Positions 16,842-48,253 of a stretch of 64,000 nt of DNA are shown here, in pieces (the stretch's first letter is position 1; each line of letters begins with the position of its first letter). The DNA is from Candidatus Omnitrophota bacterium. Lineage in GTDB: Bacteria > Omnitrophota > Gorgyraeia > Zapsychrales > Zapsychraceae. The notes under the pieces are model-generated. The model was not told the DNA's origin. It made no database searches and saw nothing but the letters and a program-made list of their open reading frames with translations. The DNA lies in contig JBFWOS010000003.1 in NCBI GenBank assembly GCA_050250375.1, positions 739,359 through 803,358 of the forward strand. Direction: 5' to 3'. The position numbers and the translations under genes are program-made.

Positions 16842-17723
16842 TTATCCGCCGGAAAGATGTTCGAATGGATTGTTTTCGACAAAATCTAATAGGATGGGAC
16901 CTGCAACAAGAATACCAACAACAGGAAAGATAAAAAGTAACAAGGGCACCAACATTTTCATAGGTGCTTTGAGAGCCAATTGTTCCCCTCTACGATACCT
17001 CGCAAGCCGCATATCTTCTGAAAGAATATTTAACGCTTCGGTTACGGAGGTCCCCATTTTATCAGCTTGAATTAATGTGCGAGAAAAAGTCGATAAATCT
17101 GGCAATTCATACCTTGCTGCCAAATCTTTTATTGCATCTCTTCGGGTCTTTCCAACATTAATTTCTTGAAGGACAACGTTTAATTCATCAATCATAACTG
17201 ACGGCGGCGACTTTTCAACAACCCATTTCAATGAAAGCATAAAGTCCAACCCTGCATTGACACACAACCCGAGCAAATCAATAGCATCCGGCAACTCTTT
17301 GACTATAATCGCCTTAACTTTTTTGATTTTTCCGCGTATTAGCATTTCTGGAAGAAGGTATCCGACCCCGAGACTCATAAATAACCAAAACATCATCATA
17401 TCAGGGTTAATTGCAGGAAATGTTACGAATAGTACTAATATAATACATAATTCTTTGGCGAGTATAAATTCTTCAGGCGTAATATTAATATGCGCTACAG
17501 CCAAATCCTTTTCAATTCTCTGTCGCATGGCACCTTGACAAACAGGTTTATTCAATTTTGCCACAATTCTTACAACTGAAGATAAACTCTTCTTCTTCTT
17601 TGGGGCTGTCGGCTGTATCCCTAATGCACTTAGAGTTGGTCTATGTTCCCATTCAACAGGAATTAGCCCTAGGATAAAGAAAAATATACATAAATAAGTG
17701 TTAATTAACAATATCGTGAACAC
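16842..17723 (-). CDS. tadC: Tad pilus inner-membrane platform protein TadC (T2SS-F domain)
   Basis: 293 aa, multiple TM helices, GspF/TadC-like C-terminal region (…TSVTEALNILSEDMRLARYRRGEQLALKAPMKMLVPLLLFIFPVVGIL…); adjacent to the tadB-like gene. Confidence 0.75.
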   Translation of the reverse strand: MFTILLINTYLCIFFFILGLIPVEWEHRPTLSALGIQPTAPKKKKSLSSVVRIVAKLNKPVCQGAMRQRIEKDLAVAHINITPEEFILAKELCIILVLFVTFPAINPDMMMFWLFMSLGVGYLLPEMLIRGKIKKVKAIIVKELPDAIDLLGLCVNAGLDFMLSLKWVVEKSPPSVMIDELNVVLQEINVGKTRRDAIKDLAARYELPDLSTFSRTLIQADKMGTSVTEALNILSEDMRLARYRRGEQLALKAPMKMLVPLLLFIFPVVGILVAGPILLDFVENNPFEHLSGG

Positions 17724-17725
17724 GT

Positions 17726-18583
17726 TTAAAAGTCCTTGAAAGTACTAATTTTCCACACCATATATGCTCCAAACGACCAAGAAAATCCAGCATAAATTAG
17801 CATTGTTCTACCTAATTTTGACGTGAACATATTATCAAACATTTGCGGATTGGTTGAATATATAACAAAACCGAAGCCGATAGGAAGTAAAGTTAGTACT
17901 GCGCCCTGAATTTTACCTTGAAGCGTTAGTGTATCCAAATTTTGTTGTATTTTTCTGCTTTCACGGATATTTGTAACAATGCGATTAAAAATTACAGGTA
18001 GGTTTCCGCCCGTTTCTCTTGCTAATAAGATAGCGGTAATCATTTGTTGTAATGCTATGGAGGACATCCTGTTATATAAATGATTTAGAGCTTCTTCTAA
18101 TGAAACTCCCATCTTATTTTCACCTAAGACAATCCCAAACTCTTTTCGAATGGGATCCGGCATTTCTTGTTCAACAGCTTCCATTGCCTGCACCAAACTC
18201 AATCCGCCCCGAAAAGAACTCGACATAATCATTAGCGCATCAATCAATTGACCGTCAAATTTATCCCGGTTCTTTTTGGTTAACATTTGTATATAAATAC
18301 CCGGAAATAAAAGGCCCAAAATGACGCCAAAAATAATCCCAAAAAATCGCATTTCCTCTGGAAAAATGAAATAAAACCCTGCTGCCAATATTAATGGAGC
18401 TAAAATAAATACACGACTAAGCTTCCTAGCATCTGTACGGGACATCAACTTTTCCATGTTATTGGATAGCTTTTGTTGACGGCGCTCGCTAATCACTGCG
18501 GTTCTGCTATAAACACTAGGAATAAGTTGATAGCCAATTAATGTTACTGTCGCAAATACTAATAATAAAATAATTATTAACAT
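17726..18583 (-). CDS. tadB: Tad pilus inner-membrane platform protein TadB (T2SS-F domain)
   Basis: 285 aa, T2SS-F-like (…GVSLEEALNHLYNRMSSIALQQMITAILLARETGGNLPVIFNRI…), TM helices; position in the Tad locus. Confidence 0.75.
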   Translation of the reverse strand: MLIIILLLVFATVTLIGYQLIPSVYSRTAVISERRQQKLSNNMEKLMSRTDARKLSRVFILAPLILAAGFYFIFPEEMRFFGIIFGVILGLLFPGIYIQMLTKKNRDKFDGQLIDALMIMSSSFRGGLSLVQAMEAVEQEMPDPIRKEFGIVLGENKMGVSLEEALNHLYNRMSSIALQQMITAILLARETGGNLPVIFNRIVTNIRESRKIQQNLDTLTLQGKIQGAVLTLLPIGFGFVIYSTNPQMFDNMFTSKLGRTMLIYAGFSWSFGAYMVWKISTFKDF

Positions 18584-23002: not shown

Positions 23003-23020
23003 TCTTACCGACCCATTAAA

Positions 23021-23299
23021 TTAATTTGTCCAAATTGCGTTCATATCTGAACCACCTGAAAAATAAGGAGAAATTTGTTTTATTTGCTCACTATCCGCGG
23101 GATCAACATAACCTCTAGTTCCTGTAGATCTTAATACTGTGTCATGCTTTTGCCTTCGGTCGGTAAACTCCCTTCCGCTCCATTCAAAAATTTTTGTAAG
23201 TGAATAAATCATTAAGAAAACTATAATCATGCACAAAGTAAATTCAATCATTACTTGACCAAGTTTTTTTGATCTATCTTTCCTTTGCAAGCGCAACAT
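23021..23299 (-). CDS. tadE: TadE-like minor pseudopilin
   Basis: 92 aa; N-term KKLGQVMIEFTLCMIIVFLMIY has the class-III prepilin G/xxxxEF motif followed by a TM helix. Confidence 0.65.
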   Translation of the reverse strand: MLRLQRKDRSKKLGQVMIEFTLCMIIVFLMIYSLTKIFEWSGREFTDRRQKHDTVLRSTGTRGYVDPADSEQIKQISPYFSGGSDMNAIWTN

Positions 23300-23325
23300 A
23301 ATTTCGAACTCCTACCGTAACAGCA

Positions 23326-24618
23326 TTATTTCAAATATTGCACATTTGGATCATTGTCCGTGGGGGTAATCCATTTCCTTCCATGTTTATCTACAATTCG
23401 ACTTCTAACAAAAATAATAGGATCTAAGGTTCCTGGTCCGGCTGTAACCATGCATGTTCTGGTAAAATTAGCAGCATTAAAACAGCATAAATTATCCGGA
23501 CAGCAAACTTCTACAGGATTTGTAATAGATGCTGTCCAACCCGCTTGATTTCCTAAAATTGTTCCGGGCAAAACAACCGTTGTCCCATCACAAAATCTGC
23601 GAGTATCATAGCTTAATTGTAATGTACGCTGAATAATATCTACTGAATCCTTCCTTTGAGCTGATCGTACATATCTTCTAGTATCCCCGCTAACTTCATA
23701 CAATTTCCCTTCATCAATTAATAAGTACGTTCCTACGCCATCCCCGGAAGCCAAGGGATTTTTACTATAAGTGTACATTTGAACATCCTGATTTGAAAAA
23801 CCAGGCGATGGCCGGGTTTCATCAGGGCTAAAGGATAGATCCCCTTCCTGAAAATCCATAACATCGACCGAAATATTCCCATTCTTTCCTAAAACTCTCT
23901 CTGTAAAACCATCGCCATCCACATCCACTAATGTAAACGCGCCGCTCTCCGTATCTATTTGACTTGGATCTGCAGCAATCCACTGCCACCAAAATGCATC
24001 ACAATTCGTATTATCAACGCCATCGTCCAATAAACCATTTTGATCCAAATCAAATCTGTAATGTGTCACTCCCCCAACGACATCAAAACAACTATTTACA
24101 TTACCACCACATCTACAAAAATCTGTAGCAGGATGATTATATTGCTGCTTAAAAACTCCCTGATTAAGGGGATATGTCCTTAAGCTTGCCGCTGTTAAAG
24201 GAAAATGAACTCCATTTACAAAAAAATCAGTCATCGGTAAATTTGCAAACTCCCCTGGATCCACGGGCATAAATAAATTTCTGGAATGTGAGGCGGAACC
24301 AGTCGCTATTTGAGGCGTTCGATCAATCGCACCATATTTCGCTGATTGTGCAGTTAAACGATCTTCCAAAATAAACACTGTGGCAGAATTACGAGAGGCC
24401 GTTCCATCTTGCCAATTTCCTGGTGGAGCTTTTATTCCCTCACTATACTCAAATGAAGTTAACATAGCCATTCTAAAGGCCTTTAAACGAGTATCTTGCT
24501 GGTAAGAAGAACCTAAAATTGTCCTTACAATAAGTCCCACCAAAAATATTACGACCGCCCCAAATACGGCCAATTCTAATGTTGTCTGTGCTTTTTGCAT
24601 ATAATTAAAAGTCATCAA
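23326..24618 (-). CDS. Large (430 aa) TadE/pseudopilin-like protein with Asp-rich putative Ca-binding repeats
   Basis: N-term KAQTTLELAVFGAVVIFLVGLIV is prepilin-like. C-terminal half has FDLDQNGLLDDGVDNTNCD and VDVDGDGFTE motifs (DxDxDG-type). Confidence 0.55.
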   Translation of the reverse strand: MMTFNYMQKAQTTLELAVFGAVVIFLVGLIVRTILGSSYQQDTRLKAFRMAMLTSFEYSEGIKAPPGNWQDGTASRNSATVFILEDRLTAQSAKYGAIDRTPQIATGSASHSRNLFMPVDPGEFANLPMTDFFVNGVHFPLTAASLRTYPLNQGVFKQQYNHPATDFCRCGGNVNSCFDVVGGVTHYRFDLDQNGLLDDGVDNTNCDAFWWQWIAADPSQIDTESGAFTLVDVDGDGFTERVLGKNGNISVDVMDFQEGDLSFSPDETRPSPGFSNQDVQMYTYSKNPLASGDGVGTYLLIDEGKLYEVSGDTRRYVRSAQRKDSVDIIQRTLQLSYDTRRFCDGTTVVLPGTILGNQAGWTASITNPVEVCCPDNLCCFNAANFTRTCMVTAGPGTLDPIIFVRSRIVDKHGRKWITPTDNDPNVQYLK

Positions 24619-24627
24619 TATTGTATG

Positions 24628-24942
24628 TTAATATGCCCCGACGGCAATTGATCCCCTTCTTAAATCCAAAGAATTAGTGCTGTCAATTCTTGTCGTTTGT
24701 AGCCCCAACGGCGTGTCGATTGAAAACAAAGTTGTTTCTGTATTTGATAATAATGTATGAAGTACGCTCGTATTAGCCGTTCTTGGATCATATTGATCAG
24801 CCAATTCATCTACTGAATCTTTCCAGCGCCCCTGAATACCTCTTTTGAAATAATTAGATGAAGCCAATAGTGCCCCCATAATGATGATCAATAAAACAGA
24901 ATATTCTATTGCGGATTGCCCTTTTTTTAATTTTTTTAACAT
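24628..24942 (-). CDS. Flp-like prepilin paralog (104 aa)
   Basis: MLKKLKKGQSAIEYSVLLIIIMGALLA: class-III signal G/QSAIEY plus TM helix; conserved KRGIQGRWKD segment; SD upstream. Confidence 0.65.
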   Translation of the reverse strand: MLKKLKKGQSAIEYSVLLIIIMGALLASSNYFKRGIQGRWKDSVDELADQYDPRTANTSVLHTLLSNTETTLFSIDTPLGLQTTRIDSTNSLDLRRGSIAVGAY

Positions 24943-24957
24943 AATAAATCCCCATTT

Positions 24958-25308
24958 TTAATTAGGATTTGGTTGTACCCCTAAATTAATTACTGCATTA
25001 GTATAAATAAACACAACATCATCATACACATAGTTCATAACGCCGGCTACATCATTCGTTCGTTTATTGACATCGGCTCTTGAAATCGAAAATGAACTAT
25101 CCAAATGGCTTTGAGACATATCATTAAATCTCTGATCCGCTAAATTCTGAACACCAATTTGATCAGCTACAAGCTTAGTCCATCCTTGCGAGGACCTTCT
25201 AACCATCGGCCCCATAGCGGCCATAATCGCAATTATTGTTGCTAGAATAATTGTGTACTCTATCGCCGATTGTGCTAACCGCTTTTTGTATTTAGTTAAT
25301 CTAAGCAT
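24958..25308 (-). CDS. Flp-like prepilin paralog (116 aa)
   Basis: KKRLAQSAIEYTIILATIIAIMAAMG: A/QSAIEY motif plus TM helix. Confidence 0.6.
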   Translation of the reverse strand: MLRLTKYKKRLAQSAIEYTIILATIIAIMAAMGPMVRRSSQGWTKLVADQIGVQNLADQRFNDMSQSHLDSSFSISRADVNKRTNDVAGVMNYVYDDVVFIYTNAVINLGVQPNPN

Positions 25309-25313
25309 ATATT

Positions 25314-25709
25314 TTAATCAGCATTTACTGGAGACGCCGTCGTGCTGACTGAACCCGTACTTGTCGTTTCACTTAAACTTTTACGAAATATTCCAGATGA
25401 CAATGGATACGAAGGTAAATCTTGACTGATATTGTCTACGGTTCGTACAACATCAGATACGCTACTAGTATAATAGGGTTCATATTGTATATATACGTTT
25501 GTGCCAGCATAGGCAGTACCAACACGCGTTCTGACAGTATTCAACATAGAATTGTGCGCGTCTCTTACTCTAGCCTGAATAGCTCTTCTGAAATATGCTG
25601 ACATCCCGGAAATTACTGCAATTGCAACAAAAAAAACAATAACATATTCACTTGAAATCATTTGAGCTTTTTGGCTTATAATTTTTTTGTTTTTAAGAAT
25701 TCTAAGCAT
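25314..25709 (-). CDS. Flp-like prepilin paralog (131 aa), divergent
   Basis: SQKAQMISSEYVIVFFVAIAVISGMSAYFRRAIQARVRDA: prepilin-like motif with 6-residue spacing; shares the RRAIQARVRDA segment with the 26283 gene. Confidence 0.5.
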   Translation of the reverse strand: MLRILKNKKIISQKAQMISSEYVIVFFVAIAVISGMSAYFRRAIQARVRDAHNSMLNTVRTRVGTAYAGTNVYIQYEPYYTSSVSDVVRTVDNISQDLPSYPLSSGIFRKSLSETTSTGSVSTTASPVNAD

Positions 25710-25784
25710 AATTAGTTAATAACCCTGATACTAATATTATACATTACTACTCATAAAAACACCAAAATTAATTATAGTCATTGA

Positions 25785-25842
25785 AAGTTTTAAAAACAAA
25801 ACATGGCTTACCTGAGAAAATTTACTTCTCAAGTAAGCCATG
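25785..25842 (-). terminator. Strong hairpin plus U-tract inside the pilin gene array (intrinsic terminator/attenuator)
   Basis: catggcttacctgagaa / ttctcaagtaagccatg form a 17-bp stem with one mismatch and a 7-nt loop (25802..25842). On the minus strand it is followed by TTTTGTTTTT. Lies about 45 nt downstream of the stop of gene 25889..26218. Confidence 0.55.
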
Positions 25843-25888
25843 CATTGTGAATGTTTTTTAATAACATATTGTGATTAATTACACAATA

Positions 25889-26218
25889 TTAGTTACCCCA
25901 AAACTCCTGATTAACGTTCATAACTGATGAATTCATCAGATCAGTTGTTACTTCAGCTTTTGTTAAAGTTGATTGCGTAACGCCTGACAAGAACGTATCT
26001 TGTGTTTGAGATGAAGTAACCATTTTCTTAATAACATTAGTATTACCTGTTGAGAATTGGTCACCGATGTCATCAGCAGCACTCTTCAATCGTCCTTGAA
26101 CACCACGTTTGATGTATACCTGGATAGACAAAAGGGCACCGATAATGATGATAATCAGAATCGCATATTCCAATGTACTCTGACCTTTTTTTCTATTTTT
26201 GTTAAAATACTTAAGCAT
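25889..26218 (-). CDS. Flp-like prepilin paralog (109 aa)
   Basis: KKGQSTLEYAILIIIIIGALLSIQVYIKRGVQGRLK; AGGAGG SD 8-12 nt upstream. Confidence 0.65.
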   Translation of the reverse strand: MLKYFNKNRKKGQSTLEYAILIIIIIGALLSIQVYIKRGVQGRLKSAADDIGDQFSTGNTNVIKKMVTSSQTQDTFLSGVTQSTLTKAEVTTDLMNSSVMNVNQEFWGN

Positions 26219-26282
26219 TGATATATCCTCCTAAATTAATCCTCTAACATAATCGCAGAGGGATTAAGTTATTAACTTCTGA

Positions 26283-26642
26283 TTACAGACCTTGAATTAA
26301 CCCCAGGGTTGTATTATATGACGATTGTTGAAAACCACCAATACCTCTACTTCGTTGGTCTTCTAACTCTGTGCGTGTCGTAGTATTGTCCAATAATTGA
26401 GATTGAACTGAGTTAGTACTAACTAGGTAGTTTGTTGTTAAGTAGTATGGTTCATACTGGTTTGTTGTACCCAATGCCGCTGATTGCGTAGTTAGATACT
26501 GCCCAGCATCACGAACCCTCGCTTGTAGAGCGCGTTGAGCGTATGTCTGCATCGCAATAATACCCGCAACAACCAGAGAGATAAGGATTGCATATTCAGC
26601 GGTATTTTGCGCCTTTTTATTTTTAATTAACTTTCTAAACAT
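26283..26642 (-). CDS. Flp-like prepilin paralog (119 aa)
   Basis: KKAQNTAEYAILISLVVAGIIAMQTYAQRALQARVRDA; AGGAGG SD upstream. Confidence 0.6.
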   Translation of the reverse strand: MFRKLIKNKKAQNTAEYAILISLVVAGIIAMQTYAQRALQARVRDAGQYLTTQSAALGTTNQYEPYYLTTNYLVSTNSVQSQLLDNTTTRTELEDQRSRGIGGFQQSSYNTTLGLIQGL

Positions 26643-27538: not shown

Positions 27539-29248
27539 TTATACCCTAATTTTTACACATCTTCCGAAAGAATCGAGGACGTCTCTATTATTTAAAACCT
27601 TCATCGCGTCATTAATTAGACAAAAAAGTGGTGCGCTTTCTTTAATATCCAAGGTAAAGATTAATTCATTTTCCTGAAAATCGACTGTCCCGCAAATTTT
27701 ATAAATTTCTATAAGTATATTATTTTCAATGTCATAAGAATCATCTATTTTAAAATAATGACAAATCATGTAAGTTCTTAGAAAGTTATATACCTTCATA
27801 TAAATATCCTTTAAATGACAAAAATCTGCAAGATCTTGTTCTTTTTGCGCATGAGCTGTTAAAATTGACTTTTCAGGTGAAAAATCTACCTTAGACTCAC
27901 CAATTTTTTCCAAATATCGGCTAATAACATAATTATATCCTTCTTTTAGATTTGTAATTATTGCAAATAACGGGGCCAGATTCTCCCCCTTCCAAACTGT
28001 CAAAACTGTTAAATCCCCCTTTAATCCATCTACTTTTTTATTAAAATAGTCCGTTTTTGTTGTAGTATACAAGATTGCCTCTTTGCAACTCCAAACCTTA
28101 AAACATTCTTTAGGTGCCCATTGTGAGGCTTTTGTAATTTTTGTAAAGTTTATATTATTTTCAAAAACACCAAAGGCAAATTTTCTACGAAACTGGGGGA
28201 TAAATGAAAAGCTTGCTAAAATATTATCGGCATCCTTGGTTCCAATTACACAAATTTCTTCTATCTTATAACCGTCTACTCCCTCTAAAGCACCCATTAG
28301 ATCAAAAAAGTCATTTGAGAATATATCTTCAGATAAGTGATCAACCATTATTAGTGGATGCGTATTGTTTATGATGAAATTCGATAATTTGTCCAATGAG
28401 GTTTTCAATGGAAAAAAACTTTTTATAACTGTATCCGCACCAATTAATTCTGTAAGATTTGCGTTTAATTTTATTGCTTTTTTGTTTTCTAGTCTAATTA
28501 AAAAACCACCAACCTGACTTAATAACTGATCTAATTCAAGTTCTAACTTTGAAATCATCGAAAGCCTAGTATTCATTTTTATCTCTTCGTCCAATATTTG
28601 TGTAGTAATGCTCAAATCTTTAATCTGGTCCGTAATAGACAAAAACAAATTTAAATCCCTATTTTCTTGAATTATATCTAAAGCCACATACATAAATACG
28701 GAATTACAAAATTTATCATACACTTCTTTGTTATGATCTGTATTATATGCCTGCATTAATGTCCCCAGGAATCCTTCTTCTAAATTTTCTAAAAATGCTA
28801 ATTTTAAGAAAATTAGTCCTGCATATTTAATATTTATCTGCGAAAGAGAGACATCAACAGCATTTTTAATCAAAACCGCTTTTTGTTCAGTTAAACTAAC
28901 ACCTGAACCTGTTGAATTCTGATTGGACAAAAATTCATTTTTAGTTTTTACAGAATTTGTATCTTTTGGAAGAGGTATCTTGTGTAGCTCTTTTGAGATT
29001 TGCTGTTTCTTCTCAGAGGGTATTTGAAATTTTTTATTCTTTTCTTCAATTTTCTTACTAGGACGTCCCACTGAATTACTTAAATTAGTACTTTTAATGA
29101 TTGAATTTACGGATGATTTCGAAACTTTAATTTTAAATTTCTCAGAAGTCAATTCGGCTAATTCTCTACAACCAAATTTTGGATTATCCCTTTTCTGATC
29201 AATTATAAAATTTATTACATCTTGTTTAAGTTTATGTGTAACGCCCAT
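27539..29248 (-). CDS. Hypothetical 569-aa protein with N-terminal helix-turn-helix-like segment; inside the Tad locus
   Basis: Start placed at MGVTHKLKQDVINFIIDQKRDNPKFGCRELAELTSEKFKIKVSKSSVNSIIK (HTH-like). The annotated 619-aa ORF would overlap the DUF192 gene. The rest of the protein has no domain I can recognise by eye. Confidence 0.5.
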   Translation of the reverse strand: MGVTHKLKQDVINFIIDQKRDNPKFGCRELAELTSEKFKIKVSKSSVNSIIKSTNLSNSVGRPSKKIEEKNKKFQIPSEKKQQISKELHKIPLPKDTNSVKTKNEFLSNQNSTGSGVSLTEQKAVLIKNAVDVSLSQINIKYAGLIFLKLAFLENLEEGFLGTLMQAYNTDHNKEVYDKFCNSVFMYVALDIIQENRDLNLFLSITDQIKDLSITTQILDEEIKMNTRLSMISKLELELDQLLSQVGGFLIRLENKKAIKLNANLTELIGADTVIKSFFPLKTSLDKLSNFIINNTHPLIMVDHLSEDIFSNDFFDLMGALEGVDGYKIEEICVIGTKDADNILASFSFIPQFRRKFAFGVFENNINFTKITKASQWAPKECFKVWSCKEAILYTTTKTDYFNKKVDGLKGDLTVLTVWKGENLAPLFAIITNLKEGYNYVISRYLEKIGESKVDFSPEKSILTAHAQKEQDLADFCHLKDIYMKVYNFLRTYMICHYFKIDDSYDIENNILIEIYKICGTVDFQENELIFTLDIKESAPLFCLINDAMKVLNNRDVLDSFGRCVKIRV

Positions 29249-29315
29249 AATTATTTCAACGTTCCAGATTGGACAAAAACTTAGTATAACAAGAGTTTTC
29301 AAGGCGGTCAATGAC

Positions 29316-29657
29316 TTACTGAAAGATAATTTTGTCCCCCAATTCACTTTTTGATATAGAAATGGCTCCAACCGGTAATTCAATCGCAACCGAAGCATTC
29401 CAATAAATCCTACTCATTTGATTAGGTTTTATATTTTTGATTAAACCAACTACTTTCTTTGAATTATTAACAAAAATTACGTCTATTGCAAATTTCATAA
29501 AAAACATATGAATAGAATTACACCGGGTAATAACTAGCGCCTCATTGTTTAAAAGTTGTTCATGTTTCAGCAATCCAATCATTCTGGACAAAAATGTATC
29601 TGCGATTTTTGCTTTGTTTGCAATAACCGTTTTTTTCGAATCATTAAAAATAATCAT
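29316..29657 (-). CDS. DUF192 (COG1430) family protein
   Basis: 113 aa; …FLSRMIGLLKHEQL…ALVITRCNSIHMFFMKFAIDVIFVN… matches the DUF192 signature pattern (GLMGR…C.SIHTFFMRFPIDV.F) as I recall it. Confidence 0.5.
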   Translation of the reverse strand: MIIFNDSKKTVIANKAKIADTFLSRMIGLLKHEQLLNNEALVITRCNSIHMFFMKFAIDVIFVNNSKKVVGLIKNIKPNQMSRIYWNASVAIELPVGAISISKSELGDKIIFQ

Positions 29658-29687: not shown

Positions 29688-31853
29688 TTATAATTTGGGG
29701 CTATTAAACGCAGACTTGTCGAATTTAATCCCCCTTGTTACGAAGTCATCATAACACTTAGGAATATAACCTGTCGCCTCAAAATCACCTATAATTTTAC
29801 CGTCAGAATCCAAACCTTTTTGCTTAAAAATAAAAACGTCTTGTAATTTCAACTGAAAATCATCGCTTAACCCCAAGGTTTCGCTGATTCCTGTGATCTT
29901 TCTAGAACCATCAGAATAACGATTGATATGTACAATAACTTGAACCGCAGAGGAAATCATTTCATTAATTGCTCTTACTGGCAATTCAATCCCGCTTAAT
30001 AAAATCATTGAATGCATCCGGGTAAGAACATCTCTGGTTGAATTAGCATGAAGCGTTGTCATAGAGCCATCATGCCCCGTGTTCATGGCCTGAAGCATAT
30101 CCAAAACCTCCGCTCCGCGGCACTCTCCAACGACTATTCGATCCGGCCGCATTCTCAGACAATTTATGAACAAATCCCTAATAGTAACCTGCCCTTTCCC
30201 CTCAACGTTTGAAGGACGAGACTCTAACCTTCCCCAATGACTCTTTTTTAGCTTTAACTCGGCAGCATCTTCTATCGTTATAATTCTTTCATCATCTGGA
30301 ATAAACTCCGAAACAACATTTAATAGGGTCGTTTTTCCTGCCCCTGTACCGCCCGACACAATTATATTTTTTCTAGATATTACACTAGCTTGTAAAAATT
30401 CCGCCATTGGTTTAGTCAGACTATGGTATTTGTTTATAAGATCTGATGCTTCCAACCTTTCTTGGCCAAACTTTCGAATGGTGATCATCGGCCCCGCAAG
30501 AGAAAGCGGAGGAATTATCGCATTAATACGCGAACCATCTTGTAATCGCGCATCAACCATTGGAGTAGATTCATCAATCCGGCGGCCAAGTGGAGCGACA
30601 ATACGATCTATGATGGATCGCATTTTCTCATTTGAAACAAATTTTTTATTAGTAAAAATCAATTTTCCATTCTTTTCTACATATATCTCATCCTTATTAT
30701 TTGCCATAATATCCGTAACATCCGGATCTGCCAAAAAATCCTCCAACGGACCCAACCCCAACGCTTCATTGACAATATCGCGCACTATTCTAGTTCGATC
30801 CTCTTGGTTTGTAATTTTTCCTCCCGCTTCATCCAATAAAAGTGTTAATACAACCTGTTCGGCGCTTTTTTTAATCCTTTCAGCCGATTCAGGGTCGGCC
30901 AAAGCATCTGTAGAAATCCCGTCTAAATTCAACCGTTCCACTAATTTTTCATGTATTCGTTTTTTTAAAATAATCGTTTCATCTTCTTCAGACACATATT
31001 GATTAACTGAGGAACCCCATGTGTGTTGAGAAACACCAAATTTTTTCCAGAAAGATCCTGGTGAAAATATTCCTTCCATGGATCGCGCTTTGCCTATATC
31101 GCCTGTTTGTATATAGATCGAATCTTTTTTAAGGGCTACCGCGATTTTAAAAAACGCATCTGAAACAGGGCTTTTAGGATTATCCAGTACACATGGAATG
31201 CCACTATTTAATGCCATTCCAACCGTTTTTCCATCTGACGGAACATGACCAAATATTTCGACTTGTATGGCTGATCTTATTTCTTGCCAAGCAACACTTC
31301 CTCGGCTTTCGGAACGATTAAGAATTAATTTAATCATTGTAAGGGGATAATGCAGGCTCTGAAAAATTTCCAAACACCATTTTATCTGATAAACGGATAA
31401 AATATCCGGAGTTCCAACCAATAAAATCAAATTAGTAAAATCGAGTGCAGAAATAAGAATTTCACTAAACGACCGTCCAGCATCAATAATGATATATTCA
31501 TATCGATCTTTCGCAACTTGTAGAAAAGGCTTTATGTTGTCCGGAGTTATATAACCAATTTGTTTATTATTCTTTACGGCGGGAATGAAGTGGAGACCAC
31601 ATTGATGCTTGGTGGCATGTTGTTCTATTTCTAAAGCTTCTCCCCCTTGTTGTAAAAGAGGAATAATATCGACGATCGAATTTCGAATGGTCAAATTCAA
31701 CATGCGGGACATATCTTGACCCGCTTGAAAATCCAGATCAATCAATAATACTTTGTTATCAGATTTGCTTAGAGCGGCGGCAAGATTAACGGCGGCTAAT
31801 GTTTTTCCTACTCCTCCCTTACTGCTAAATATCGTAATAACTTTACAGTCCAT
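29688..31853 (-). CDS. Fused CpaE/TadZ-like ParA/MinD-type ATPase (N-terminal) plus CpaF/TadA secretion ATPase (C-terminal)
   Basis: N-term VITIFSSKGGVGKTLAAVNLAAAL is a deviant Walker A of MinD/ParA/CpaE type. C-terminal half has the VirB11/CpaF Walker A IIVSGGTGAGKTTLLN plus Asp/His boxes. 721 aa in one frame. Confidence 0.7.
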   Translation of the reverse strand: MDCKVITIFSSKGGVGKTLAAVNLAAALSKSDNKVLLIDLDFQAGQDMSRMLNLTIRNSIVDIIPLLQQGGEALEIEQHATKHQCGLHFIPAVKNNKQIGYITPDNIKPFLQVAKDRYEYIIIDAGRSFSEILISALDFTNLILLVGTPDILSVYQIKWCLEIFQSLHYPLTMIKLILNRSESRGSVAWQEIRSAIQVEIFGHVPSDGKTVGMALNSGIPCVLDNPKSPVSDAFFKIAVALKKDSIYIQTGDIGKARSMEGIFSPGSFWKKFGVSQHTWGSSVNQYVSEEDETIILKKRIHEKLVERLNLDGISTDALADPESAERIKKSAEQVVLTLLLDEAGGKITNQEDRTRIVRDIVNEALGLGPLEDFLADPDVTDIMANNKDEIYVEKNGKLIFTNKKFVSNEKMRSIIDRIVAPLGRRIDESTPMVDARLQDGSRINAIIPPLSLAGPMITIRKFGQERLEASDLINKYHSLTKPMAEFLQASVISRKNIIVSGGTGAGKTTLLNVVSEFIPDDERIITIEDAAELKLKKSHWGRLESRPSNVEGKGQVTIRDLFINCLRMRPDRIVVGECRGAEVLDMLQAMNTGHDGSMTTLHANSTRDVLTRMHSMILLSGIELPVRAINEMISSAVQVIVHINRYSDGSRKITGISETLGLSDDFQLKLQDVFIFKQKGLDSDGKIIGDFEATGYIPKCYDDFVTRGIKFDKSAFNSPKL

Positions 31854-31913: not shown

Positions 31914-33590
31914 TTAGTTTCTTTGCAAACTATAAACAATTGGAATTGTAATATTTAATTCCTGCAGGTCGGTATCCGTAGGAAAACCTTCGTAAGGCGC
32001 ACTATTTTTCGCTGTATTTAGTGCGTAATCGTCAAAAATTTCATGTCCAGAGGATTCTTTGACTAAAGCATACGCCAAAGTTCCATCATTAAGAATGTGC
32101 AACCCTAACTTTACTGTTCCTTCCCAACCATACTCTTTAGCCTCGCTCGGATAAACCACCTGCTGTGAAATTTTCTTTTGAACTGCCCGCACATAATCCT
32201 TCATTTCATCCGGAATCATAATCGCCGTTTGTGCAGCCGGTTTATCTTGTGATAAAACTCTTGATGTCCTTGGGATCGAAGTTTGTTCTTTTTGTGTTTT
32301 TTCTTTGGCTGTCAATGGATTTAACCCTGTATCAATTCTATGCGGAGTCATTGAAATGACAACTTCCGTGTCTTGATCAGGAGTTGGGTTTGATCTTGAT
32401 CTAAACACTAATCCTAATATGGGAATGTTTCCAAGATAAGGAACCTTTTTGATAAGCTCCCCATGGCGTTGTTGAATTAATCCAGCAAGAACTATCGTTT
32501 GCCCGTCATCCAAAAACAACTGCGTGCTTGCGCTTCGAGTAACAAAAGCCACATCATCGCCAACTGCATTAGATGCGTCAACATCACTAATCTCTAAATT
32601 CATGAGTACATCTATTTTATTTTTTCGAATTGTCGGAGTAATAGTCATCCCAACCCCATATTCTTTAAATTCCACATTTTCCTGTGTGGAAGTACCCGAA
32701 GATGTTGTTGTTCTAATAGGAATTTCGCCACCCACTAAGAAGCTGGCCTCTTCTCCGCTTAGAACTACAAGCTTGGGTTGAGAAAGTACGCGCCCCATCC
32801 CTTCTTCAAGCAGCGCATTGACAGTTGCAATTAATGCAGAAGTTCGGCGAAAATCACCAATTTTAAAAAAATCTCCGATCGAACCATCAAAATCTGGAAG
32901 GTCTTCCCCATAATCAATATTTATTCCAGCGCCACTTCCTGTGTCCCCCTGCCCTCCAGCAGAAGCCCAGTCAATCCCCATACTTTTGGTCAAAGTCGTA
33001 TTTAGTTCTGTAATCTGCACATCTATTTGAATTAAATCTTCAATGTCTTGCTGTTCAACTAGACTGATTATATGGTCATCAAAATTTATGACAATATCCT
33101 CAAATATAGGTTCTTTATACTCGGGAACCGTGCCAGTAAGCACGACCCTTCCTTCATTCTTATTCACGGTTAAATACACATGATACAGTTCTGCATCATT
33201 AAGAAGCTTTTGAATCCTATTTTTAATAACATTTAATTCGGCCCCGGAAACATTAATCATGATAACACGCTTTCCATGTTCATCCCAAATAAAGAGCGGG
33301 GTTTGCCCTACATTTTTAGCAATAAGAAGAACCTCTTGGTCATCGGCATCAACAACATCAGCAATTTCAGGATCCGTCATAGAAAGACGCGTTAACGAAT
33401 AGACTTTCAGTTGGGTTAACTCACCCAACACCATATTAACTTCATCAATATAAATGGTGTCTATCACTTCTTCCGACGAATTAGATGTTTTAGCAAAAGA
33501 TTTTTGTGGAGCCCACGTGCAAACACCTATTACGATTATCACAAATGAAAGAAATAAATTTTTCTTGAAGCAACTCATCGTTGTTTTCAT
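31914..33590 (-). CDS. CpaC/RcpA-type secretin with a C-terminal TonB_C-like domain
   Basis: Signal peptide; secretin core (…VPYLGNIPILGLVFRSRS…). C-terminal 90 aa is QQVVYPSEAKEYGWEGTVKLGLHILNDGTLAYALVKESSGHEIFDDYALNTAKNSAPYEGFP, the TonB C-terminal fold pattern (YP..A...G.EG.V.V.F.I..DG.V…SSG). Confidence 0.65.
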   Translation of the reverse strand: MKTTMSCFKKNLFLSFVIIVIGVCTWAPQKSFAKTSNSSEEVIDTIYIDEVNMVLGELTQLKVYSLTRLSMTDPEIADVVDADDQEVLLIAKNVGQTPLFIWDEHGKRVIMINVSGAELNVIKNRIQKLLNDAELYHVYLTVNKNEGRVVLTGTVPEYKEPIFEDIVINFDDHIISLVEQQDIEDLIQIDVQITELNTTLTKSMGIDWASAGGQGDTGSGAGINIDYGEDLPDFDGSIGDFFKIGDFRRTSALIATVNALLEEGMGRVLSQPKLVVLSGEEASFLVGGEIPIRTTTSSGTSTQENVEFKEYGVGMTITPTIRKNKIDVLMNLEISDVDASNAVGDDVAFVTRSASTQLFLDDGQTIVLAGLIQQRHGELIKKVPYLGNIPILGLVFRSRSNPTPDQDTEVVISMTPHRIDTGLNPLTAKEKTQKEQTSIPRTSRVLSQDKPAAQTAIMIPDEMKDYVRAVQKKISQQVVYPSEAKEYGWEGTVKLGLHILNDGTLAYALVKESSGHEIFDDYALNTAKNSAPYEGFPTDTDLQELNITIPIVYSLQRN

Positions 33591-33592
33591 AT

Positions 33593-34474
33593 TTATAGCT
33601 CCCTACCTCCCCGAAAGATTTCAACAAAAGGCGCGTCATCTGCTTCAACCTCTTCGGTTTCAACAACTTCATTTTGTTTTTGTTGTTTTTTTGCTTTAGG
33701 TAAATTTAATTCTGTTCCTTGCTTATCCAAAACATAATCCGATAAAGAGTCCCAGGCCGCAACTTGTAGTGCTTTTGTATCTTTCTCGGCAGGAGATCGT
33801 AAGGCTAATTTCAACTGTCCGTATTTTTGAGCAAATGTAATAAGACCAACTTCTTCCGGGGCAATCGCCAAAGTAATATCCAAGGAACGGGACTTTTGTT
33901 GCTGTTGATAAATAAGAGCACTTCCTACTGGTTTAAAATTAGAATTAACAGCTAATACCTGTATGTTTTGGAACAATACAGAGGTTACCTGCATAGGCTT
34001 TTCTTTTGGGTCTTGCGGATAAGGCACTTCAAGATCCGCAAGTATATCGACAAAATCTCCGGGATTAATCAATCCACCGACAGCTGATAATGCATCAATC
34101 ATAATCGTCATAGCGCGTTTTCCTGGGGGAGTAATCGAAGCAAATACCGTACTATCAACTATTTGTGTAGGAACGCCTGTTGTTGATTTAACTGCTCCGC
34201 CTTTGGGCAGATTTGCTAGTTGTTGCGCTAAAGCTTGTTGCTGCTGTTGCGCCATAGTCTGCATTTGTTTTTGTAACTCCCTATTCTTTATTTCCATTTC
34301 CTTTCTAAGCGCCGCCGTTTGAGCTGCGGCCTTTTTTTCATAATCTAAGGCCAAAGCTTTTGTTTGTGATTCAATACTGGTCTTAACATATTGGCTCATT
34401 AAGAATGCCGCCACGAGCCCCAACCCAACAGCTAAAAGAATAGTGGCAAATTGTTTTTTATTCTCAATATTCAT
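33593..34474 (-). CDS. cpaB: CpaB/RcpC-like Flp pilus assembly protein with Gln-rich coiled-coil insert
   Basis: N-terminal TM anchor, Q-rich coiled-coil, then SAF-like region; position next to the secretin. Confidence 0.55.
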   Translation of the reverse strand: MNIENKKQFATILLAVGLGLVAAFLMSQYVKTSIESQTKALALDYEKKAAAQTAALRKEMEIKNRELQKQMQTMAQQQQQALAQQLANLPKGGAVKSTTGVPTQIVDSTVFASITPPGKRAMTIMIDALSAVGGLINPGDFVDILADLEVPYPQDPKEKPMQVTSVLFQNIQVLAVNSNFKPVGSALIYQQQQKSRSLDITLAIAPEEVGLITFAQKYGQLKLALRSPAEKDTKALQVAAWDSLSDYVLDKQGTELNLPKAKKQQKQNEVVETEEVEADDAPFVEIFRGGREL

Positions 34475-34489
34475 AATTTCTCACCTCAA

Positions 34490-35440
34490 TTAATTTAATA
34501 ATTCTTCTCTAACCTCAACGGGTATTTGTTTACGAATCTGGTCAATATGCCCCAATATCGCTTCCTGCTGTTTTAATAAAGTCTGCGATTGAATAATTTC
34601 ATTTTTAATTTCATCAAAAGGAATAACCTGCCCATCCTTAATTTCCTCTAACTTTATCACATAGAACCCATTTGGCCCTTTAAATACATTACTTGTTTCT
34701 CCTGCTTTAAGTGCCAAAATTTCAGTTGCCATTTCTGGAAAAGGTTCCTGGGTAATGTATCCCAAATCTCCCCCTTTTGAAGCTGAGGTGCTAATGGAGT
34801 TAAGTTTTGCTAATTCAGAAAAATCGGACCCCTTAAGAACTTCCACCAATATTTCATTTGCCTTAATTTGATCTTTTAGAACAATTTCCCTTACCCTGTA
34901 TTGTGGAGGATCAACCAACTGATCCTTTTTCTCAATATAAAAATTCTGAGCGTCTTGATCTGTCACAACTATTTTCTCAACAAGATTTTTCGCAGCCTCT
35001 CTAACGATTAGGGTTCGTCTAAACTCCTCAACAGCGGCTAAAATGTCTTTATTTTTATCCAAACCGGTCTTTTCGGCTTCTTCAACTAATAATTGTTGAC
35101 GTACAAGCTCATCCAAAACTAACTTTTTTGCATCAATATTTGTAATATCAAATTCAGGGATAACTTCCTTTAAGGCCGATAGCCGTTCATTAAATTCCTC
35201 AATTGTTATTGTCCATCCACCTACCCGAGCTAATTCGTTTCCTGAAAGTGGCTTAGCTTGTGTTGACACTGATGTTTTCGGCGTTTGTTGTGAAGTTGTC
35301 TGAGATGCTTCCTTGGGAACGGCTGATTGCTTTTTGTCATTATCTAAATCACTCTTCTTGGAAGGCGTCATATCACATCCGGAAATACTTAAAACTACAA
35401 GACTGAATAAAACAAAATTTTGACATGAACTGGATTTCAA
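34490..35440 (-). CDS. PpiC-type peptidyl-prolyl cis-trans isomerase (SurA/PrsA-like) lipoprotein
   Basis: Lipobox SISGC. C-terminal parvulin-like block (…SKGGDLGYITQEPFPEMATEILALKAGETSNVFKGPNGFYVIKLEEI…). Confidence 0.55.
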   Translation of the reverse strand: MKSSSCQNFVLFSLVVLSISGCDMTPSKKSDLDNDKKQSAVPKEASQTTSQQTPKTSVSTQAKPLSGNELARVGGWTITIEEFNERLSALKEVIPEFDITNIDAKKLVLDELVRQQLLVEEAEKTGLDKNKDILAAVEEFRRTLIVREAAKNLVEKIVVTDQDAQNFYIEKKDQLVDPPQYRVREIVLKDQIKANEILVEVLKGSDFSELAKLNSISTSASKGGDLGYITQEPFPEMATEILALKAGETSNVFKGPNGFYVIKLEEIKDGQVIPFDEIKNEIIQSQTLLKQQEAILGHIDQIRKQIPVEVREELLN

Positions 35441-36712: not shown

Positions 36713-36931
36713 TTAATTAATGGTACCAATATCATTGAAGATATCCGTGGCGGTTAGATTCATTGATGTAATAGTTAATTCAACAGCTTGATTGACAGAT
36801 GTGGCAAACATTCCACCAGGGCGAGTAAAAATAACAATCACAGCAAGAACAGCTCCCATCATCATCAAATATTCAGCTAAACTCTGGGCAGTTTCGCATG
36901 AATTTTGTTTTTGATTGCGTTTTAACATCAT
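36713..36931 (-). CDS. Solitary Flp-family pilin (72 aa), outside the main Tad locus
   Basis: MMLKRNQKQNSCETAQSLAEYLMMMGAVLAVIVIFTRPGG: A/QSLAEY motif plus TM helix; shares TRPGG with the 26692 paralog (FLGPGG). Confidence 0.6.
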   Translation of the reverse strand: MMLKRNQKQNSCETAQSLAEYLMMMGAVLAVIVIFTRPGGMFATSVNQAVELTITSMNLTATDIFNDIGTIN

Positions 36932-44941: not shown

Positions 44942-46030
44942 TTAAATACGCATAGGAAGGGCTAAATATAGATAGTCATCCATTCGCATAACAGCGGGTT
45001 TATCCACCCCTAATAATTCCATATAAATTTTTTCTTCGTTAATATTTTTTAAAAAATCAATTAAAAATTGAGGATTAAACCCGACAACCATTTCAGAGCC
45101 TTTATATTCTACCGTTATCTCCTCTCTAGACTCCCCAATATCTGGTGTACTTTTAGAGACAACCATTTTATCTGAAAAAATTTCAAATTTAACTGCTTGA
45201 AAATCAGGGGTTGATAATAAATTAGCCCTTCTTATAGAAGCTAATAATTCTTGAGTTTTCATAACTATTCTATTTTCAATCGGTTTCGGAATAACTTGGT
45301 TATAGTTTGGAAATTCTCCTTCAATAATTCTAGTCGCAATTAAAGTTCCATCAATATTGAATAATACTTGATTTGCTCCGACAACTAACGACAAATCTCC
45401 ATCATCAGTTAAATTTCTATTAATTTCTTGAATTGCTTTGATTGGAATAATAACATTAACATCTTTTTTTAGGGTTGAATTTATTTTACGTTCAATTTTT
45501 GCTAATCGTCTACCATCTGTAGCGACTATTCTCATAAGATTACCGTTAATCTCTAATAAAACACCATTTAATACATATCTGGATTCTTCATGAGAAACAG
45601 CAAAAGATGTTAATTTTAACATTTCTTTAAATATAAATTGTCCAATTTGAACGTTTTCTTTATTATTAAATTCTGGAAATTTAGGAAACTCATCTTTCGG
45701 TAATCCGATTAATTTAAATCGATAATTTGTACCTTCAATATCAATTTGATTATTCTTTTTTGTGTTTATTAAAATATCCCCACTAGGTAATTCTTTTATT
45801 ATGTCACTAAATCTTTTTGCAGGAACAGTTATTGCGCCTTCTTCATGTGTTTCCACAGGGATTTCACAAGATATTCCGATATCTAAATCTGTAGCATTAA
45901 ATTGTAAAATGTTATTTTTTGTTTCTAATAATATATTAGATAGTATAGGTAATGTAATTTTATTAGAAACAACATTTTGAACTGTTTGAATTCCATGGAG
46001 TAGGTTTTCTTTTGTTACTTTAAATTTCAT
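44942..46030 (-). CDS. dnaN: DNA polymerase III beta sliding clamp
   Basis: 362 aa; N-term MKFKVTKENLLHGIQTVQNVVSNKITLPILSNILLE. Confidence 0.85.
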   Translation of the reverse strand: MKFKVTKENLLHGIQTVQNVVSNKITLPILSNILLETKNNILQFNATDLDIGISCEIPVETHEEGAITVPAKRFSDIIKELPSGDILINTKKNNQIDIEGTNYRFKLIGLPKDEFPKFPEFNNKENVQIGQFIFKEMLKLTSFAVSHEESRYVLNGVLLEINGNLMRIVATDGRRLAKIERKINSTLKKDVNVIIPIKAIQEINRNLTDDGDLSLVVGANQVLFNIDGTLIATRIIEGEFPNYNQVIPKPIENRIVMKTQELLASIRRANLLSTPDFQAVKFEIFSDKMVVSKSTPDIGESREEITVEYKGSEMVVGFNPQFLIDFLKNINEEKIYMELLGVDKPAVMRMDDYLYLALPMRI

Positions 46031-46178
46031 TTATTAACACCTCGTTTATCTAAAATTTTAGTTAAAACTAGTTGTAATATTAGTAGTGGCTGTGAATTTT
46101 TATAATATACTTCTAAGTTATTCGTTATTAATATTTTGTAGAGTTTTTATCTGTTAATAACCTCTTTAAAAAAAGTTA

Positions 46179-48041: not shown

Positions 48042-48179
48042 ATGAAAAAAACGTTAAAAACACCAACGATTCTTAAAGGTAAAAAAACGCACGGTTTTCG
48101 TAAGAGGATGAGTACGAGAGACGGTCGCGATGTCCTTAGTCGCCGCAGAAAAAAGGGTCGAAAAAGACTAACAAAGTAA
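48042..48179 (+). CDS. rpmH: 50S ribosomal protein L34 (under 60 aa, absent from ORF track)
   Basis: Manual translation [45 protein letters not shown]. Confidence 0.85.
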
Positions 48180-48253
48180 AGCATCTGAACCCCCATCGAA
48201 ACTACAGTCATTAAATTTATTTTCCATACAAGGGTGTGGTATAATTTAAAAAT

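Follow-up and report, generated by a model that had tools for sequence, protein, structure and literature searches.

The open reading frame at 31914..33590 on the minus strand of the Candidatus Omnitrophota DNA analysed here (a stretch of 64,000 nucleotides, hereafter the window) encodes a CpaC/RcpA-type Tad secretin that continues through a linker into a canonical TonB C-terminal domain. The encoded protein is not itself a TonB, since an inner-membrane anchor is missing and the neighbourhood contains neither exbBD nor tol genes. The gene is complete in the ORF list and domain scans (558 amino acids plus stop, ATG start), and its nearest homologue shares 92% identity and an identical architecture. 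The fusion of a Tad secretin to a C-terminal domain of the TonB/TolA superfamily, which the original prediction had claimed from the letters of the DNA, is borne out by matches to PF13629, PF00263 and PF03544 within this one ORF. All features described below lie on the minus strand. The hydrophobic N-terminal segment (residues 1–33; 33492..33590), with a helix at residues 5–25 in the AF2 model, is, as judged by eye, probably a signal peptide that would be cleaved after SFA; secretin domains follow it, and an inner-membrane anchor of the TonB type is absent. Residues 64–114 (33249..33401) form a T2SS-T3SS_pil_N domain (Pfam PF13629, 3.3e-10), the periplasmic N-domain typical of CpaC/RcpA, which is present in place of the STN/N0 domain of GspD/PilQ, and the protein scores far under the cutoffs of all three of the NCBIfam models for GspD, PilQ and SctC. 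The β-barrel core of the secretin spans residues 260–417 (32340..32813; Pfam PF00263, 1.6e-39, 135.6 bits against a cutoff of 27.5), and the secretin part matches the solved secretins GspD, InvG, PilQ and RcpA in Foldseek with E values of 1e-26 to 1e-11 (1.6e-13 for RcpA, 8odn). The polar linker at residues 418–456 (32223..32339), delimited by pLDDT and pairwise identity, is poorly conserved and is predicted to be disordered, with pLDDT below 50 at 422–431 and 435–456 in the AF2 model.

The domain that follows matches Pfam TonB_C at residues 477–555 (31926–32162; PF03544, E 5e-15), reaching 56.2 bits where the gathering cutoff is 24.6 and covering profile positions 2–79 of 79, and it also matches the NCBIfam model tonB_Cterm (TIGR01352; 43.9 bits, cutoff 27.1). 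Its motif YPSEAKEYGWEGTVKLGLHILNDGTL... shows the YP / EG / DG / SSG signature in canonical form. The original prediction had assigned the last 90 residues to TonB_C; signature and profile match agree with this, but domain scans, AF2 and Foldseek together delimit a slightly larger domain from about residue 457 (457–558; 31917..32222) that includes an N-terminal helix, which is also found in the TonB domain of H. pylori. The model comprises helices at 461–477 and 482–487, strands at 491–500 and 505–512, a helix at 517–530 and a last strand, β3, at 544–553, with a pLDDT of 86–91 in the full-length model and a pTM of 0.67 when the tail is modelled alone. Structure prediction thus folds the tail as a TonB C-terminal domain, with TM scores of 0.59–0.78 (rmsd 1.8–4.6 Å) to TonB structures from H. 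pylori, P. aeruginosa, E. coli, N. meningitidis and others, and of 0.68–0.78 (rmsd 1.8–2.7 Å) to TonB bound to BtuB, FhuA, FoxA or TbpA. Domain III of TolA shares the superfamily fold but fits less well (TM 0.39–0.57, rmsd 4–9 Å), and the match to TonB_2 is also weak. With the TonB C-terminal domain (H. pylori 5LW8/6SLY; E. coli with BtuB/FhuA, 2GSK and 2GRX) the tail shares YP, EG, DG and SSG...D, the β-β-α-β fold and a low-complexity spacer ahead of the domain. The invariant residues of the tail are Y466, P481, A484, G491, G503, L505, S514, G515, D520, P532, F536, P537, P550 and Y553, and the tail conserves the residues that ordinary TonB domains conserve; β3 is almost invariant. A 'PYYAG' string before the tail, considered as a conserved self-docking strand, was rejected, being present in about 30% of the sequences and lying ahead of the conserved domain.

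The integrity of the fusion is clear from its relatives. No stop and no frameshift interrupt the junction of secretin and tail in the inspected ORF, and the two parts share a single stop-free frame in 79/79 related species-representative loci in which both were detected, each from an independent assembly, while both domains are present in all of the best 120 protein clusters. The single frame in these 79 loci rules out a gene merge or frameshift, so that the chance of a sequencing or assembly error having joined adjacent secretin and small TonB-like genes is negligible. Locus L073 was rejected as a natural tail-less exception, since this part of the record consists of a run of N. Of the best 150 representatives at 50% identity retrieved by a secretin-only query, about 125 carry the same tail, and these reach down to about 30% identity. 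Relatives are encoded on at least 546 species-representative stretches, and the best 80 of these carry the tail. Mean pairwise identity is 0.62 for the tail, 0.65 for the barrel and 0.15 for the linker, and this conservation indicates that the tail is under strong purifying selection. Linker length in the family ranges from 0 to 354 residues (median 43), the single value of 0 being an artefact of domain calling and the shortest plausible linkers having 13–19 residues; the linkers are of low complexity and rich in E/A/S/K/P, and some relatives have A/K/E helical repeats like those of TolA-II.

All named members of the family are Omnitrophota. Some relatives come from MAGs labelled Planctomycetales, Planctomycetia or Phycisphaerae, most of which have the same synteny. 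The expectation that this architecture would be unusual for a Tad secretin holds only against model organisms: no secretin with TonB_C was found among the characterised or solved secretins, but within the Omnitrophota, going by the best 80 of at least 546 relatives, the fusion is the norm. The secretins of two Omnitrophota-type operons (L081 and L087) lack the tail, and these operons have no separate TonB_C gene, so that the tail is best regarded as an accessory that is dispensable in some lineages.

The secretin gene is embedded in an operon that is the conserved Omnitrophota Tad-like locus upstream of giant genes, as reported for Omnitrophota generally (West-Roberts 2023). Two nucleotides upstream of it lies the gene for the alignment-complex protein CpaB/RcpC (33593..34474; Pfam RcpC 4e-24, TIGR03177 4.6e-30), itself preceded by a SurA-like parvulin PPIase gene (SurA_N and Rotamase_2 in the domain scan; 34490..35440) that directly adjoins cpaB in 72/80 loci and was also reported from the Tad-like locus by West-Roberts 2023. 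Sixty nucleotides downstream is a gene fusing TadZ to TadA (29688..31853), with a ParA/MinD-like domain at residues 3–240 and a T2SSE ATPase domain at 365–644 in the domain scans; TadZ and TadA share a single reading frame in 68/71 loci. The operon further contains a conserved DUF192 protein (29316..29657; Pfam 9.4e-16; in 63/80 loci), five paralogous pilin-like genes (24628..26642), whose translations have Flp-like N-termini (G/A-Q-S/N-x-x-E-Y) with a weak Class_IIIsignal match and which are conserved in about 49 loci, the TadB-like and TadC-like platform proteins (T2SSF; 16842..18583; Pfam PF00482, 1.6e-16 and 5.3e-13) and several unannotated large proteins, and a giant ORF, longer than 5,082 amino acids, lies immediately downstream of the locus. 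Tad synteny around the secretin (CpaB/RcpC, TadZ, TadA, TadB/C and Flp-type pilins) is kept in the 80 loci. Near dnaA, DnaA boxes of the E. coli type numbered 23 where 19.9 were expected, which is no enrichment.

RcpA/CpaC of the Tad (type IVc) pilus, as in the P. aeruginosa RcpA–TadD complex (8ODN, PMC10499894), shares with the fusion protein the PF13629 N-domain and the secretin core, and RcpA/CpaC systems share CpaB/RcpC, TadZ, TadA, TadB/C and Flp-like pilins as neighbours. The C-termini differ. The C-terminal S-domain of RcpA is the docking site for the pilotin TadD, a TPR lipoprotein into which the last four residues of the unstructured end of RcpA insert (PMC10499894), whereas in the fusion protein a linker of about 40 residues leads into a folded domain of the TonB type, some 100 residues long. 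The locus differs from RcpA systems also in its fused TadZ and TadA and in the absence of a TadD-like gene, no TadD-like or TPR pilotin having been detected in the domain scans of the Tad locus of the window; a TadD may be encoded elsewhere in the genome. A self-piloting liposecretin of the BfpB or HxcQ kind was rejected, as an N-terminal lipobox cysteine is not conserved among the orthologues: by a crude regular expression a lipobox-like string occurs in 12/215, most apparently by chance. The SurA-like protein, considered as a pilotin substitute, has a lipobox-like LSISGC in this genome and such a motif in 10/65 loci after crude extraction of the N-termini.

Secretins of the RcpA kind form a 13–14-mer pore in the outer membrane, and the established activity of the TonB fold is the capture of a short extended peptide as an added strand at the edge of the sheet, on β3; domain III of TolA likewise acts by strand augmentation, with the N-terminus of TolB and with phage g3p. 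We suggest that in the Omnitrophota secretin the S-domain of canonical RcpA has been replaced by a disordered spacer and a TonB-type C-terminal domain. By analogy with solved secretins the C-terminus would leave the barrel on its periplasmic side at the outer wall, and from this peripheral position the TonB_C modules on their tethers would form a crown around the assembled ring, directly under the outer membrane and 13–14 in number if the ring has as many subunits as RcpA; as some orthologues have tethers of only 13–19 residues, the tail is likely to be held next to that membrane. Given the strand capture known for the fold, the tail most likely docks a strand of a nearby partner, which it would take up on the β3 edge. 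The captured partner would then lie near the outer membrane; the secretin would be positioned, stabilised or mechanically coupled, with the tail in the role of a pilotin or anchor and not of an energy transducer. This role is on balance the probable one. Against it speak the lack of a TonB-box-like motif in the proteins of the Tad locus and the ability of TonB-like C-terminal domains to bind folded proteins as well.

The original prediction had also raised contact with an energising inner-membrane partner, and this is disfavoured. Such coupling would have the tail engage an ExbD/TolR-like component, or one bearing a TonB box, so that proton-motive or pilus-motor force would travel between the secretin and a different machine of the envelope. 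The layout of spacer and domain does resemble that of TonB and TolA, down to the E/A/S/K/P-rich linkers with their occasional TolA-II-like repeats; the Agl-Glt gliding machine of Myxococcus (GltG/GltJ) has likewise put TonB_C modules to a new use; and there is a weak match to tolA_full (TIGR02794), which at 21 bits however stays far under the cutoff of 59.45. Against it, the N-terminal transmembrane helix by which TonB couples to ExbBD is missing, neither the 64-kb window nor the set of genes syntenic across the 80 loci includes exbB, exbD, tolQ or tolR, and linkers of 13–19 residues are too short to reach the inner membrane. We therefore consider energy coupling of this kind highly improbable. 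Our search of the literature for the Ton/Tol or envelope genes that Omnitrophota possess returned nothing.

Attachment to the cell wall, likewise anticipated at the outset, is rather unlikely. Here the tail would bind peptidoglycan and pin the secretin to the sacculus against the force of pilus retraction, comparable to the AMIN domains of PilQ or the LysM protein TsaP. A position beneath the outer membrane and 13–14-fold multivalency would suit such an anchor, and the C-terminus of TonB itself is said, in one older study, to have been proposed to bind peptidoglycan. One related secretin (P0259) has two SH3_3 domains at the C-terminal position where TonB_C would sit, and a related Tad locus (L084) encodes an OmpA-family protein. 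The TonB C-terminal domain is nevertheless not an established peptidoglycan binder, the contact of the Ton system with peptidoglycan being made by ExbD (PMC11658791); the conserved residues of the tail are the ordinary ones of TonB domains; and a domain scan of the fusion protein detected no AMIN, LysM, SPOR, OmpA_C or SH3/SH3b domain. SjdR, a 'TonB-like' protein of Anabaena considered as a peptidoglycan-related analogue, has no TonB_C domain and was set aside.

The tethered TonB_C modules might alternatively act as receptors that hold pilins, or a giant protein of the 'archaeovorin' type, where the channel opens into the periplasm. TonB-like C-terminal domains also bind folded proteins, as the FusB domain does ferredoxin (PDB 9hi3, 7zc8), and candidate clients are at hand in the adjoining giant ORF, the five paralogous pilins and the unannotated large proteins of the operon. 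The C-terminus of the secretin would, however, lie on the outside wall of the barrel and not in the substrate lumen, to judge from the RcpA–TadD structure (PMC10499894). A regular expression for the TonB box ([DE][TS][ILVM][VIT]V[TS]), run over all ORFs of the window, gave its sole match in GyrA and none in the proteins of the Tad locus. In addition, Tad complexes and giant proteins may not strictly co-occur: most Gorgyraia lack Tad complexes (Seymour 2023), and a 2026 preprint finds giant proteins concentrated in Gorgyraia. A client receptor is accordingly an improbable function for the tail.

If the tail docks a partner strand, as we propose, the C-terminus of CpaB/RcpC is a candidate for that strand. 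RcpC engages RcpA by strand completion, its hairpin completing the sheet of the RcpA N-domain (PMC12307814). The C-terminus of the CpaB encoded in the window, '...PFVEIFRGGREL', forms a single terminal strand with no hairpin, and in 68/74 tail-bearing loci CpaB ends no more than six residues past strand 1, the second strand of the hairpin thus appearing to have been lost in most tail-bearing systems; the tail-less relatives with the CpaB motif all (6/6) retain 9–18 further residues. Because the correlation between short hairpin and tail probably reflects one evolutionary event, and because a deep-branching tail-bearing group (L076–L078 and L080) retains the full CpaB hairpin, CpaB as the partner of the tail is only a lead. 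A bolder version, a long shot in our estimation, would turn TonB upside down: 13–14 strand-capture domains anchored at the outer membrane would grip a strand resembling a TonB box on a second component of the envelope, be it the orphan C-terminal strand of CpaB, an outer-membrane barrel or the giant protein, and the gating or assembly of that partner would be driven by force that reaches it through the secretin from the Tad motor, and not by the proton-motive force.

The AMIN domains of PilQ, the TsaP (LysM) ring, ExeA/GspA, pilotins and S-domains resemble the fusion in concept, in that an additional module in the periplasm serves to position or stabilise a secretin. In its C-terminal location the tail corresponds to the S-domains. 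In fold it differs from all of these, and the anchors named are N-terminal domains or separate proteins. Like GltG/GltJ of Myxococcus, it is a TonB_C module used outside nutrient import in linking envelope machines, but GltG/GltJ are anchored in the inner membrane and coupled to a motor, whereas the fusion is anchored in the outer membrane. TonB, too, is held by an inner-membrane N-terminal helix and coupled to ExbB/ExbD, while the fusion protein is anchored at the opposite membrane by the secretin, with no evident energy source. We found no paper that combines TonB_C, secretin and pilus or that describes the fusion. Seymour 2023 and West-Roberts 2023 regard the Tad-like locus as central both to the predatory or parasitic lifestyle of Omnitrophota and to their giant genes, and neither mentions the TonB domain of the secretin.

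Homologues of the fusion are annotated by PGAP as 'TonB family protein', a misleading label that can be misread as a capacity for nutrient import, and the 'TonB-domain' genes counted beside giant genes in the 2026 preprint may be this secretin. The finding opens no long-standing question by itself and yields testable predictions concerning the partner of the tail, independence from a pilotin and the shortened CpaB hairpin. On the reading favoured here, the Omnitrophota would have drawn on the Ton/Tol systems for a module that solves the positioning or anchoring of a secretin, to all appearances with no pilotin of the TadD type, and with a TonB domain hung from the outer instead of the inner membrane. 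Should the improbable upside-down arrangement prove true, it would represent a previously unknown use of the TonB module together with pilotin-free secretin assembly in ultra-small predatory bacteria.

The gene at 31914..33590 on the minus strand encodes a protein of 558 aa, secretin::TonB_C, in which a CpaC/RcpA-type Tad secretin is followed by a C-terminal TonB-type domain, the tail (residues 457-558). Pfam places T2SS-T3SS_pil_N (PF13629) at residues 64-114 (3.3e-10), Secretin (PF00263) at residues 260-417 (1.6e-39) and TonB_C (PF03544) at residues 477-555 (5e-15), the last over the full 79-position profile with 56.2 bits (gathering score 24.6 bits). The NCBIfam model tonB_Cterm also matches (43.9 bits, threshold 27.1 bits), and the GspD, PilQ and SctC equivalog models of NCBIfam all fall far under their thresholds. 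Given the ORF, these matches and the DNA of the junction, which reads through without a stop or frameshift, the original prediction of a Tad secretin ending in a TonB_C-like domain describes the sequence correctly, and the tail belongs to the TonB_C domain family. Taken whole, the protein is neither a TonB protein, despite its PGAP name, nor TolA, and a liposecretin reading was rejected since a lipobox-like string occurs in only 12 of 215 orthologues.

The AlphaFold2 model, built from 46 homologues, presents a secretin body, a disordered linker (residues 418-456, with pLDDT <50 at 422-431 and 435-456) and a confident C-terminal domain (pLDDT 86-91 in the full-length model) composed of helices 461-477 and 482-487, strands 491-500 and 505-512, helix 517-530 and strand 544-553. 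In Foldseek the body resembles solved secretins, among them the P. aeruginosa Tad protein RcpA (8odn), and the tail resembles TonB C-terminal domains. For a tail-only model (pTM 0.67) the top 26 structure matches are exclusively TonB and TolA, TonB domains (TM 0.59-0.78, rmsd 1.8-4.6 A) giving a better fit than TolA domain III (TM 0.39-0.57); the matched TonB structures include complexes with BtuB, FhuA, FoxA and TbpA. Among solved structures the H. pylori TonB C-terminal domain comes nearest in sequence (single-sequence search 8e-5, profile search 2.5e-11), and it has an extra N-terminal helix in common with the tail.

PF13629, PF00263 and PF03544 occur together in 120 of the best 120 protein clusters (44-92% identity), where the named clusters are Candidatus Omnitrophica/Omnitrophota and the database names are 'TonB family protein' (NCBI) and 'pilus assembly protein CpaC' (JGI). 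A locus scan with one genome per species gave at least 546 stretches coding for relatives; in the best 80 of these, with identities as low as 34%, the match extends to the query's final residues, and wherever both parts were detected (79/79 loci) secretin and tail share a single stop-free frame. Locus L073 was rejected as an exception, its record having a run of N there. Searching 1.8 billion cluster representatives with the secretin part only (residues 1-425) returned 522 matches at E <= 1e-30, and an HMM made from tails detected the tail in about 125 of the best 150 (29-62% identity along the matched stretch), the tail-less ones being mostly fragments, with a few full-length proteins. Even the most divergent tail-bearers that have a name belong to Omnitrophota; some MAGs with the tail-bearing family are labelled Planctomycetales, Planctomycetia or Phycisphaerae, most with the same synteny, although these are labels only. 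The tail is thus present in relatives, the rival reading that a frameshift had merged two separate genes is rejected, and an assembly artefact is excluded.

The secretin gene belongs to a tightly packed minus-strand operon. A SurA-like parvulin PPIase (SurA_N plus parvulin, 34490-35440), whose gene immediately precedes cpaB in 72 of 80 loci, may be a chaperone dedicated to the secretin; its lipobox-like LSISGC did not appear conserved (10/65 loci in a crude test). The CpaB/RcpC gene (33593-34474) ends 2 nt ahead of the secretin gene. A 721-aa TadZ::TadA fusion (29688-31853) of a ParA/MinD-like TadZ and the T2SSE ATPase TadA comes next, its two parts being in frame in 68 of 71 related loci; Bdellovibrio too is reported to have a tadZA fusion (bioRxiv 10.64898/2026.07.08.737194). 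The DUF192 gene that follows is overlapped at its end by a 619-aa ORF (orf619, 27539-29398, G+C 0.31) with weak HTH (transposase-type) matches only, which was rejected as an insertion and is a regular component of the Tad operon because it holds the same position in 54 of 80 loci. Five paralogous pilin-like genes (104-131 aa, 24628-26642) encode Flp-like (G/A)Q(S/N)xxEY N-termini; a similar 'AEY' hydrophobic start is found in a 72-aa ORF at 36713-36931 on the minus strand, between the MDH and CN-hydrolase genes (15/80 loci). Conserved ORFs of 1293, 92 and 430 aa (19121-24618), lying between the pilin genes and TadB, have no Pfam match; each encodes a hydrophobic segment at the N-terminus, and their products may represent large minor pilins or parts of a TadG-like kind. 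Directly downstream of the TadB and TadC genes, a stop-free giant ORF of >5,082 aa (2-15247) leaves the window at its left edge; a Peptidase_C39-like domain (1.1e-8) lies in its N-terminal part, and the ORF fits the Omnitrophota 'archaeovorin' giant genes found after this secretion locus (West-Roberts 2023). The order CN-hydrolase, MDH, PPIase, CpaB, secretin::TonB_C, TadZ::TadA, DUF192, orf619, pilins, orf430, orf1293 is shared over the 80 loci. The locus is the same as the Omnitrophota Tad complex of Seymour et al. (2023) and the 'type II secretion-like' system that West-Roberts et al. (2023) describe as conserved ahead of the giant genes. The rest of the window is an origin-proximal chromosome segment, with dnaA, dnaN, dciA and gyrBA on one side and yidC and parAB on the other of a GC-skew sign change at about 46 kb (~46000-48250). 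As this flip adjoins dnaA (46179-47516), the Tad locus lies ~10 kb from a probable replication origin; DnaA boxes of the E. coli type show no enrichment near dnaA (23 observed, 19.9 expected).

In an alignment of 46 secretin::TonB_C homologues, mean pairwise identity is 0.65 for the secretin core, 0.62 for the tail, 0.52 for the pil_N domain, 0.41 for the second N-domain and 0.15 for the linker. Fourteen tail positions are invariant; the YP, EG, DG and SSG...D motifs and a large part of the final strand are among them. A Y-x3-(V/I)-Q-x-K-I helix, beginning ~21 residues ahead of YP, opens the conserved unit. Linkers abound in E, A, S, K and P; their median length is 43 residues, with 13-19 as the shortest plausible values and 354 as the longest, a single length of 0 being a domain-call artefact. 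The tail HMM detected two tandem tails in 4 of 242 proteins, and two others, P0078 and P0138, each have two TonB_C stretches by Pfam. Loci L081 and L087 have the Omnitrophota-type operon (PPIase, CpaB, secretin, TadZ::TadA, DUF192) with tail-less secretins (420 and 433 aa) that are not followed by a TonB_C gene, which makes the tail an accessory module rather than something the core requires. The next closest secretins, from a Halanaerobiales species, a Firmicutes/Bacillota MAG and metagenomic contigs, are of canonical length, and their examined loci are ordinary Tad loci with TadZ and TadA separate. Other related CpaC-type secretins (loci L082, L083 and L084) bear add-ons that are not TonB_C: two SH3_3 domains in P0259, TolA-II-like A/K/E/Q helical repeats in P0258, an E/K-rich, probably helical stretch in P0231 and a disordered S/T/N/P-rich stretch in P0265. 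This variety indicates that periplasmic add-ons recur at the C-terminus of this clade. Direct anchoring of the tail to peptidoglycan, as originally proposed, would be plausible by analogy with the SH3 tail of one relative and an OmpA-family gene at another locus, but is not supported by the known biochemistry of the fold; within the Ton system it is ExbD that makes the peptidoglycan contact (PMC11658791).

The TonB C-terminal domain acts by taking up a TonB-box peptide as an added strand of its sheet, as in the complexes matched by the tail. The short C-terminal S-domain of canonical RcpA is a coil whose last four residues dock in the TPR pilotin TadD, an interaction essential for assembly (PMC10499894). 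We infer, for an architecture that is itself well supported, that the tail takes the place of the S-domain on the outer wall of the barrel, in the periplasm, in which case the assembled ring would display 13-14 tethered strand-capture modules near the outer membrane. The linkers of 13-19 residues in some orthologues would place the target near the outer membrane or on the secretin itself, not at the inner membrane. Because of the S-domain position and these short linkers, a docking or anchoring role, in which the tail would substitute for a pilotin or anchor, is favoured over energy transduction. The energising inner-membrane partner of the original prediction is disfavoured: secretin::TonB_C has no counterpart of the region through which TonB couples to ExbBD, some linkers are not long enough, and there are no motor genes nearby, the ORFs scanned in the 64-kb window including no ExbB/ExbD, TolQ/R, Pal, TonB-dependent transporter or TPR lipoprotein. 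Cargo capture is possible by analogy with FusB-type TonB domains, which bind folded proteins (9hi3), but the predicted position of the tail outside the barrel lumen speaks against it.

For the docking role, CpaB is a concrete lead to the tail's partner. RcpC docks by completing the β-sheet of the RcpA N-domain via its C-terminal hairpin (PMC12307814); the CpaB C-terminus here (33593-33640) ends '...PFVEIFRGGREL', without the second strand of such a hairpin. CpaB ends <=6 residues past the strand '...(F/Y)IQIFRGG(R/K)EL' in 68 of 74 tail-bearing loci, while in all six tail-less relatives having the motif, L081 and L087 among them, it runs on for 9-18 residues that form the second strand. Tail-bearing loci that keep this strand are the divergent group L076-L078 and L080, and also L056 and L075; since the divergent group retains it, the pattern is probably a single loss following gain of the tail. 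The sequences are suggestive, in a non-statistical sense, of a tail that either assumed some of the hairpin's function or binds the orphaned strand.

None of the solved or characterised secretins that we found carries TonB_C, and we found no publication describing the fusion; 'TonB' is absent from Seymour 2023 and West-Roberts 2023, and 'fusion' from Seymour 2023. To this extent the architecture is as unusual for a Tad secretin as had been supposed, although with so many stretches encoding relatives it is not rare, and it is already apparent in automated annotation and precomputed Pfam architectures. A 2026 preprint describes two 'TonB C-terminal domain' genes flanking giant genes (bioRxiv 10.64898/2026.06.07.730766); these may be secretin::TonB_C, not import machinery.
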